This document shows, piece by piece, positions 50,093-52,721 of a DNA stretch of 64,000 bases. A program made the translations under genes and the position numbers. The stretch is from a virus (Duplodnaviria; Caudoviricetes). The stretch is from the IMG/VR virus record IMGVR_UViG_3300027759_003166; one strand, 5' to 3'. How positions within the stretch are numbered: position 1 is the first letter of the stretch; each line of letters starts with the position of its first letter. The notes beneath the pieces are model-generated. The model had not been told where the DNA came from. It searched no databases and saw only the letters and a program-made list of their open reading frames with translations.

Positions 50093-50182
50093 TGGCGGAA
50101 CGACTGAGACTCGAACTCAGAAACCCTCTTTCGAGAGTCGATGGATTAGCAATCCACTCCAATACCATTATGGGACCGTTCC
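50093..50182 (-). tRNA. tRNA-Ser(GCU)
   Basis: Long variable arm, loop UUGCUAA, G73, CCA. Confidence 0.92.
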
Positions 50183-50190
50183 TTAATTCT

Positions 50191-50303
50191 TGGTGCAACC
50201 GGTAGGTCTCGAACCTACAAAGGCGTTGTCTAGGACTTTGCCCCATCACCGGCTTTTCTTTTCAGAAGAAGCGGCAGGTCTGCCATATTCCACTCACGGT
50301 CGC
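50191..50303 (-). ncRNA. 113-nt tRNA-like RNA lacking an anticodon loop
   Basis: Acceptor GCGACCG/CGGUUGC plus ACCA, T-arm GUAGG-UUCGAGA-CCUAC, extended arm capped by GAAA. Confidence 0.6.
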
Positions 50304-50318
50304 AAGTATATTATATAC

Positions 50319-51056
50319 TTATTCGCCCGCTGTGTCAACTGATTTTACGTGAGCAAGTTCTTTGTTGATAAAGTCCCAAGCTCTTTGCAGTAACCTCTTG
50401 TAGTGAGGATTATCCGTTTTTTCTGGATATATGTCTGCTATATGTTTAACTTCAAATGCTCTATTTAGATATGCTGTCATTTTTGTTCTAAATGCTGCTG
50501 GATCTAAATGAGACAATTTAGGTATCACTGGCGAGATAAAATGTAATGCTTCAATAAAACGTGCATTAATTTCTGCCGGTTGTGCTCTATAAGCGGTATC
50601 TGGATCTTCCCGATCTGCTGGATTTCTTGCTGTACTATAACGTGTACTTTGATTAGCCCTATCCGACGATTTAAAATCGTCCATGGCGTGTCTTAGTTCG
50701 TGTGCAATAATAGTACGCATACGGTTAGAGGACAAGTAATCAGCATTTAAAGATATTGCCTTTTCTGCAGGATCCCATTCACCTAAGTGTGAGTCTGCTC
50801 CTGTTGCTCGTCCATTTAATCTACGTGCTAGATCTACAATAGCTTCATCTGAGGATATTGCCAAACGTATTCTATCCACGGCAGGAATTGGAGTGTCAAA
50901 TAGATCTCCAATGCGTCCAATATGTATTACGCCTGTTTCATCGTAGTCTAACTCTGTATCAGCGTATTGCTGTAGATAATCGTAGATAGTATCAGCAAGG
51001 CTCATAACAGCACGATCTTCTTCAGCAGTTTCAACTAGTAGTTCATGTATTCGCAT
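50319..51056 (-). CDS. HEXXH zinc-metallopeptidase-like protein, possible capsid-targeting N-terminus
   Basis: MRIHELLVE; IAHELRHAMD..EINARF; TAAATA just upstream. Confidence 0.6.
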   Translation of the reverse strand: MRIHELLVETAEEDRAVMSLADTIYDYLQQYADTELDYDETGVIHIGRIGDLFDTPIPAVDRIRLAISSDEAIVDLARRLNGRATGADSHLGEWDPAEKAISLNADYLSSNRMRTIIAHELRHAMDDFKSSDRANQSTRYSTARNPADREDPDTAYRAQPAEINARFIEALHFISPVIPKLSHLDPAAFRTKMTAYLNRAFEVKHIADIYPEKTDNPHYKRLLQRAWDFINKELAHVKSVDTAGE

Positions 51057-51896: not shown

Positions 51897-51991
51897 GTCG
51901 TTCTCCTTTTAAAGTTTTCTCATAATAAAATACAGAGCACAAAATATAATTACTATCAATAGTAAGACCATAATATGCTCCTTGGTGTGGT

Positions 51992-52066
51992 TGGCAGGGA
52001 CTGAAGGTAACGCTCCTTCTCACCCAGTTTCAAAGACTGGTATCTGCTCTTATCGATTTAATCCCT
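51992..52066 (-). tRNA. atypical tRNA-Gln(UUG)
   Basis: Loop CUUUGAA, CCA; non-canonical T-loop AGCGUUA and D-loop. Confidence 0.65.
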
Positions 52067-52162
52067 ATGTTATCTAACTCTTGTTTTGTTAATACAGATA
52101 TTTTTAATTCCGGATGTTGAGTTATTTCCCCTGCCAAACAACACAATGCCCCAACAATAAAA

Positions 52163-52217
52163 CAGGATGCTTATTTTTCAATTAAAAGTTGAATTTAAAA
52201 TTTGCTGTTCGCATCCT
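52163..52217 (-). ncRNA. ACAGCAA hairpin element D (carries Lys-type anticodon stem-loop)
   Basis: AGGAUGC-GAACAGCAA...GCAUCCUG; inner UUCAA-CUUUUAA-UUGAA. Confidence 0.6.
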
Positions 52218-52222
52218 AAAAG

Positions 52223-52594: not shown

Positions 52595-52603
52595 ATAATA
52601 AAA

Positions 52604-52662
52604 CAGGATAGCATTTTTTTTCATTAACGTTGAAAGTTTTTTGAGTTTGCTGTTGCTATCCT
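52604..52662 (-). ncRNA. ACAGCAA hairpin element E
   Basis: AGGAUAGC-AACAGCAA...GCUAUCCUG; inner UUUCA-ACGUUAA-UGAAA. Confidence 0.6.
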
Positions 52663-52721
52663 AAAACTTGGTGGATAACAGATGCCGACCGTAAGGTATA
52701 AGCACCCGCTTCTCCATAATT

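Follow-up and report, generated by a model that had tools for sequence, protein, structure and literature searches.

An anticodon-less RNA gene of tRNA-Leu type in a jumbo-phage tRNA array, with relatives in other phage-type contigs

A 113-nt element on the minus strand of a phage DNA stretch (50303-50191) is a real RNA gene located in a jumbo-phage tRNA array. It has the frame of a tRNA-Leu, with A73 and an encoded CCA end, but two hairpins take the place of the anticodon arm. Almost certainly it is a selected RNA that does not decode, and its conserved identity bases make it a probable substrate of leucyl-tRNA synthetase (LeuRS). As to its purpose, we tentatively propose a decoy for host tRNA-binding factors. 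Here we describe the gene together with its family of relatives. They appear to be a previously undescribed variant of a kind of phage RNA that is known but lacks an explanation.

The window, i.e. the whole 64,000-nt stretch that was analyzed (Caudoviricetes; IMG/VR record IMGVR_UViG_3300027759_003166), is DNA of a freshwater jumbo phage encoding a tail fibre, a clamp loader and an RNA polymerase omega subunit. Judged by the clamp loader, the Pseudomonas phages PA5oct and Paride (58%) are its nearest relatives in culture. Genes for the omega subunit (46232-46456) and for a PpiC-type rotamase (44666-44989), both on the minus strand, are located inside the tRNA array; among plasmid records, the sequences closest to the omega subunit are proteobacterial. 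ARAGORN placed 28 tRNAs around the RNA gene and made no call for the gene itself, and in Rfam the only match was tRNA (RF00005) at 20.6 bits, below the 29-bit threshold, with no other family near threshold. The features of the gene and its surroundings are listed in Table 1.

Table 1. Features of the RNA gene and its immediate neighbors in the window
Feature	Position	Strand	Remark
Whole RNA gene, tRNA-Leu-type frame without anticodon	50191..50303	-	105.6 bits against family model R1
Acceptor stem, 5' strand, positions 1-7; G3 at 50301	50297..50303	-	two-sided changes at 6 of 7 pairs
D arm; A10-U25, G11-C24, G12-C23; bulged U at 50292	50276..50294	-	
D-arm bases A14/A15; G18G19; A20a	50289/50288; 50284/50283; 50281	-	
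Hairpin 1, in anticodon-arm position; GAAA loop at 50263-50260	50248..50275	-	
Hairpin 2, at variable-arm position: basal stem, 3x3 internal loop, apical stem	50220..50244	-	
Triloop CUA of hairpin 2	50233-50231	-	
U48, partner of A15 (leucine-type Levitt pair)	50219	-	44 of 44 in protein-anchored set
T arm: G49-C65, U50-A64, A51-U63; loop with G59 and A60	50202..50218	-	
Acceptor stem, 3' strand, positions 66-72; U70 at 50197	50201-50195	-	
Discriminator A73; encoded CCA	50194; 50193-50191	-	family: A73 213/213, CCA 197/213
TTGACA (-35 box) of the sigma-70-type promoter; lies within the upstream ORF, at its 3' end	50333..50338	-	
-10 box TATAAT, 6 nt ahead of base 1	50310..50315	-	
tRNA-Ser(GCU), starting 8 nt past the CCA of the RNA	50093..50182	-	
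Upstream ORF, 245 aa, of no known family; its end carries the promoter	50319..51056	-	

An earlier sequence-only reading of the window had described the element as an anticodon-less tRNA mimic with a seven-pair acceptor stem, G3-U70, C2-G71, A73 and an encoded CCA, all of which are present at the given place on the minus strand. The bulged helix capped by GAAA, said to replace the anticodon arm, was likewise recovered as hairpin 1. Other parts of that description needed adjustment: the Leu-like D region is there, but its stem carries a bulged base; the T arm is present but not fully canonical, having A60 in its loop; and the supposed insert of about 29 nt does span 29 nt between the helix and the T stem, but forms a structured second hairpin. 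The folding z-score of the window copy is -2.43; family homology and covariation are far stronger evidence against chance. The earlier inference of a non-decoding tRNA-like RNA, for which decoy and aminoacyl-donor roles had been listed, is supported as to the kind of RNA.

The gene has its own promoter. TTGACA-17-TATAAT (50338-50310) was found as previously reported, at a distance of 6 nt from G1 rather than about 7, and is one of two 12/12 sigma-70 consensus matches within 10 kb. A promoter lies upstream of 195 of the 213 relatives described below. The distance from the -10 box to base 1 is exactly 6 nt in 182 of 213, as opposed to 2 of 636 true tRNAs from the same loci, and for this reason the promoter is counted as part of the gene. 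All relatives except one (212/213) begin with a purine. From this spacing, transcription probably starts at base 1 in the window copy and throughout the family, yielding an RNA without a leader whose 5' end would be a paired triphosphate and need no RNase P. The fixed promoter fits a product needed in quantity, and an AU-rich trailer after the CCA end in the family, together with the kept A73 and CCA, is as for a released RNA. In the window, the tRNA-Ser(GCU) gene, a neighbor that recurs in several array-type relatives, is probably co-transcribed with the RNA, and 5' cleavage of that tRNA would release the tRNA-like RNA. The 245-aa ORF upstream is a neighbor and not an obligate partner; at a related locus (L124) the ORF is present and the RNA absent.

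Pattern scans of viral and metagenome contigs yielded a family of at least 213 distinct sequences of 96-119 nt; counts given for it are counts of sequences, not of independent events. Because the scan patterns prescribed some bases of the D and T arms, invariance is quoted where possible from a second set, which was collected through the most frequent neighbor of the RNA, an Hc1-like protein, to avoid pattern bias. Regarding the 80 loci of this protein-anchored set, 58 contain a full RNA, one a truncated copy and 21 no RNA. The family secondary structure also holds in this set, which in addition revealed a second D-arm subtype with pair 12-23 changed from G-C to C-G. In an alignment of 83 members, 99% of the stem cells are paired and two-sided changes occur at 16 of 24 pairs, a covariation signal exceeding that of all shuffles and slid controls. 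The acceptor stem, the T stem and both inner hairpins covary, and the acceptor and T stems have 7 and 5 pairs, respectively, in all members. Coding constraint through antisense ORFs was ruled out, their lengths varying in all frames.

All relatives recovered are phage-type; among GTDB genomes there was a single matching contig, itself a phage-type tRNA array. Each of four long records has one RNA per genome, and a 95%-complete relative has none; the patchy presence is as for an accessory gene. Most copies are located outside tRNA arrays, 98 of the 127 copies with adequate flanks having no tRNA within 2 kb. The copies head operons in which the first downstream gene varies (Hc1-like protein, small secreted-looking protein or tRNA); the usual Hc1-like neighbor is missing from this window. 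Among cultured phages no record has both halves of the RNA, Paride, T4 and T5 are without a family member, and matches in Caulobacter and Aeromonas phages proved to be ordinary tRNAs.

The elbow, A73 and CCA are where the family is most conserved, whereas acceptor-stem pairs are free to covary and the anticodon arm is under no constraint. A canonical anticodon arm (5 pairs, 7-nt loop, U33 and a Leu anticodon) is not present in the family. As to the replaced arm, whose conservation in relatives had been suggested as a check, the two hairpins differ: hairpin 1 is free in length (12-34 nt) and loop (mostly 3-6 nt) and has no common sequence, whereas hairpin 2 is constrained. It measures 26-30 nt with its linker in most members, both of its stems (basal and apical) covary, and the middle base of its triloop is U in 193 of 202. 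Since hairpin 2 is conserved although E. coli LeuRS ignores the sequence of the variable arm, a further binding partner is likely. The tip of hairpin 2 was also considered as a relic UAG/UAA anticodon or a stop codon and rejected; its flanking bases covary and close the triloop, and 23 members differ.

The conserved set of identity bases is of the bacterial leucine type, not alanine. A14A15, G18G19, A20a, U48 and A73 are each found in 44 of 44 sequences of the protein-anchored set, where they were obtained without constraints on them; U8-A14 is also counted among the identity bases present, U8 having been required by the search behind the 44 sequences. In E. coli, LeuRS recognizes A73, A15-U48, G18G19 and A20a and ignores the variable-arm sequence (PMC9976931), and the anticodon arm is dispensable, variants without it being charged (PMC9976931; PMC2377443). 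These rules are borrowed here for a host that is probably a proteobacterium. In every array tested, those of T4 and T5 included, the true tRNAs that score best on the family model are tRNA-Leu. Both D-arm subtypes match tRNA-Leu isoacceptors. The major D-loop core is shared with 19 true tRNAs of these loci, all of them Leu, and the minor core with nine, of which seven are Leu(CAA). The T arm has features of its own: A51-U63 occurs in 213 of 213 members as opposed to 2 of 67 true phage tRNA-Leu, A60 is common in the T loops, and U54-A58 is broken in 3 of 213. With an additive table (PMC3239215) the predicted EF-Tu term is +0.68 for the family versus -0.10 +/- 0.36 kcal/mol for phage tRNA-Leu, i.e. 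binding is predicted to be weaker by a shift of 0.8 kcal/mol, which is below the outlier bar of 1.3 in the same study.

Three other accounts of what the RNA is can be weighed against this evidence. The G3-U70 and A73 of the window copy had led the sequence-only reading to emphasize alanine and tmRNA, and since G3-U70 alone can confer alanine acceptance, some side charging of this copy with alanine is possible. An alanine-accepting, tmRNA-like mimic is nevertheless very improbable and largely refuted at the family level, where pair 3-70 is G-C in 174, A-U in 32 and G-U in only 7 of the 213 members, G2-C71 occurs in none and the nearest relatives of the window copy by core sequence carry G3-C70, whereas all 10 true tRNA-Ala from the same loci have G3-U70; moreover, there is neither a tag frame nor a pseudoknot, and ARAGORN and Rfam call no tmRNA. 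Splicing of an intron-containing precursor to a decoding tRNA, named earlier as an observation that would overturn the mimic, has a precedent in the predicted tRNA introns reported for Lak phages (PMC6784885). It is hardly credible here: no single excision from the window copy yields a canonical anticodon arm, and in the family excision does so in 4 of 213 members compared with 4-9 in shuffles, none of them at position 37/38. The 96-nt members, in which hairpin 1 consists of 4 pairs and a 4-nt loop, are too short in this region for an anticodon arm. The remaining account, equally hard to credit, is a decaying tRNA-Leu pseudogene, to which a copy without the 5' acceptor strand and D loop (L218, 2324-2443; the sole clearly broken member seen) and the 16 of 213 members without encoded CCA could be attributed. 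The random decay expected of it was not found, the stems being kept by compensatory changes, in the protein-anchored set as well, with fixed promoter spacing and invariant identity bases.

The RNA was compared with the known tRNA-like RNAs. With class II tRNA-Leu (RF00005) it shares A73, A14/A15, U48, G18G19, A20a, the 7/5 stems and a long arm at the variable position, and one phage tRNA-Leu(GAG) has a similar extra D-stem base; it differs in having no anticodon arm of 5 pairs and 7 nt, a longer second arm with an internal loop, A51-U63, frequent A60 and a putatively leaderless transcript. The kind is already known from RNA1 of phage T5 (AY543070.1, misc_RNA rna1), annotated like RNA2 as 'tRNA-like stable RNA with unknown functions', because RNA1 combines a Leu-type D arm, A15, U48 and a T arm with hairpins in place of the anticodon arm. 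However, its core is unrelated, it is 144 nt long and lies inside a polycistron, and by our own reading of the annotated sequence it has U at 73 and no encoded CCA. On family model R1, T5 RNA1 and RNA2 score 19.5 and 13 bits compared with 82-120 bits for full-length members; RNA1 ranks below true T5 tRNAs. Species 1 RNA (rnaC) and species 2 RNA (rnaD) of T4 are small stable RNAs of unknown function from a phage tRNA cluster; rnaC shares a terminal T-arm-like hairpin, but both lack a Leu-type D arm, and the match amounts to about 20 bits over part of rnaC only.

Outside these phages, the tRNA-like domain of tmRNA is also CCA-ended with A73 and no anticodon, but requires G3-U70, lacks a D stem and carries a tag frame. 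The window contains a DUF2828/DUF7788 gene (42766-44187, minus strand) that is putatively TROVE-like, and a Ro60/TROVE gene is the neighbor expected of a Y RNA; a DUF2828 gene is near the RNA in 14 of 128 loci and absent from two complete phage records carrying the RNA. YrlA (RF02553; PMC4201824) is a tRNA elbow mimic found in phages too, but is permuted, with its ends forming a Ro60-binding stem, and the RNA had no Rfam match to it. The staphylococcal non-proteinogenic tRNA-Gly, an aminoacyl donor, resembles the RNA in being an extra gene alongside normal ones and in having a T stem for which weaker EF-Tu binding is predicted (PMC3239215), but it keeps its anticodon arm and has a known transferase, and the weakening predicted for the RNA is modest. 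Allo-tRNAs (PMC5389517) have 8/4 or 9/3 acceptor/T stems instead of 7/5. No description of the family was found in Rfam or in the literature searched, which covered little subscription literature or older T5 work.

A decoy for host tRNA-binding factors would account for the gene as follows. A stable, non-decoding phage RNA derived from tRNA-Leu would act off the ribosome and in stoichiometric amounts. The host sigma-70-type promoter, whose placement is seen in the sequence, would set the start at base 1, giving early and abundant synthesis of an RNA with a paired 5' end independent of RNase P, and the 3' end would arise by release from the operon transcript and trimming down to CCA. Covariation shows the acceptor, D and T stems and two hairpins; D/T-loop contacts would presumably make the top half L-shaped. 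By the known identity rules, host LeuRS would bind and probably leucylate the product, which, having no anticodon loop, could neither decode nor be cleaved there. It and real tRNAs might then compete for a host factor binding at the elbow, the acceptor end or the long arm. Most plausibly the target would be a tRNA-attacking defence toxin; examples are known of anti-phage nucleases that cleave tRNAs in the anticodon loop (PMC13434031). We favor the decoy because the fixed parts are generic docking surfaces, a cleavable anticodon loop is missing, no partner gene was seen to accompany the RNA and the gene is an accessory one. Against it, the conservation of hairpin 2 implies another partner that the decoy idea does not name, and a normal phage tRNA would serve too, this phage having two true tRNA-Leu genes.

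Partner genes were searched for with class I synthetase (PF00133; no match in 5 phage records) and with Leu/Phe transferase, Acetyltransf_6, Mom (run without a positive control) and CCA-enzyme (no match in 15 phage records); this absence is weak evidence because most of the records are fragments. An ATE_C-like gene is present in 1 of 22 records. A stand-alone ATE_C-like protein of 151 aa, a possible aminoacyl-tRNA transferase domain below the Pfam cut-off, occurs sporadically in two phage contigs (L433, 1345-1800; L347, 5540-5980).

Other roles are conceivable for the RNA. It appears unlikely that the RNA, once charged by LeuRS, escapes EF-Tu and serves as a dedicated leucine donor to an aminoacyl transferase of host or phage (for N-degron tagging or for envelope or DNA modification), although the distinctive A51-U63 and the weaker predicted EF-Tu term point in this direction, G3-C70, a determinant of the E. 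coli L/F transferase (PMC4105747), is present in 174 of 213 members, and Mom of phage Mu uses charged tRNA on DNA (PMC13219725). The EF-Tu shift stays under the 1.3 kcal/mol bar, and the full transferase set (G3-C70, C72, A4-U69 and C68) is found in none of the 213, the window copy lacking both G3-C70 and C68; the searches for transferases gave the results stated above. A natural tRNA scaffold is about as unlikely: here a Leu frame, favored since the anticodon arm does not matter to LeuRS, would stabilize and mature a cargo, with the hairpin 2 triloop as the protein-binding working part. The kept length, covarying stems and central U of hairpin 2 agree with this, as do other Leu-type frames with unrelated inserts in phages (L092, L014; T5 RNA1), but no gene travels with the RNA and the frame is conserved more than the cargo. 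Quite improbable is a cis-acting 5' leader whose paired +1 end protects or regulates the downstream operon mRNA. In its favor, the RNA always heads its transcript, and most copies lie outside tRNA arrays and 20-66 nt ahead of a gene. Against it, A73, CCA and an AU-rich trailer are as for a released RNA, the downstream genes are interchangeable, and a tRNA follows in this window.

The broader reading is offered with the same reserve as the decoy: that these are widespread jumbo-phage RNAs, leaderless, leucine-charged and never decoding, which may serve in counter-defence, as decoys or inhibitors of tRNA-targeting immunity, or as amino-acid donors. If true, a function would for the first time be given to the tRNA look-alikes of phages, which have been known since T4 and T5; among them, T5 RNA1 and RNA2 and T4 species 1 are annotated without function. 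A decoy would add RNA-based counter-defence, and a donor non-ribosomal use of leucine by phages. The 213 natural variants separate the fixed parts (elbow, A73, CCA, promoter spacing, T stem and triloop arm) from the free ones (anticodon arm and acceptor sequence). Standard tRNA finders miss this common jumbo-phage gene or miscall it, as ARAGORN did with three short relatives called tRNA-Arg(UCG) from a UUCG tetraloop.

Several further observations were made in the window and in related phage arrays. Besides the DUF2828/DUF7788 gene, the window has an AAA_33 kinase gene (41505-41966, minus strand); in relatives this pair occurs with a metallophosphoesterase and a DSP phosphatase, in what looks like an RNA-repair cluster. 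Repeated units on the minus strand between the tRNA genes (52598-52670, 52158-52222, 44440-44530, 44255-44375 and 44198-44258) have a common closing stem and differing interiors, some resembling lone anticodon hairpins (Glu, Lys); Rfam gave no match where they were scanned. No tRNA-Gln was called in the array; a minus-strand unit at 51990-52135 has a Gln(UUG)-type anticodon arm in a paired frame, about 90 extra nucleotides on the D side and a T loop of unusual form. Another uncalled tRNA-like unit (45025-45106, minus strand) consists of a T arm and three short hairpins.

Related phage arrays contain a second type of CCA-ended, anticodon-less tRNA-like RNA, about 120 nt long, whose D arm is not of the Leu type (L122, 8304-8424; L130, 3238-3355). 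Leu-type frames with unrelated inserts at or in the anticodon arm were seen at L013 (6617-6733), L092 (4322-4444), L014 (4613-4727) and L030 (258-377). GUU (Asn) tRNAs with G73, a long variable arm and a Leu-like D loop occur at L008 (8201-8302) and about 25 similar loci, and tRNA-Ile(UAU) genes about 90 nt in length, likewise with a long variable arm, at L130 (5703-5794) and L123 (9282-9371).
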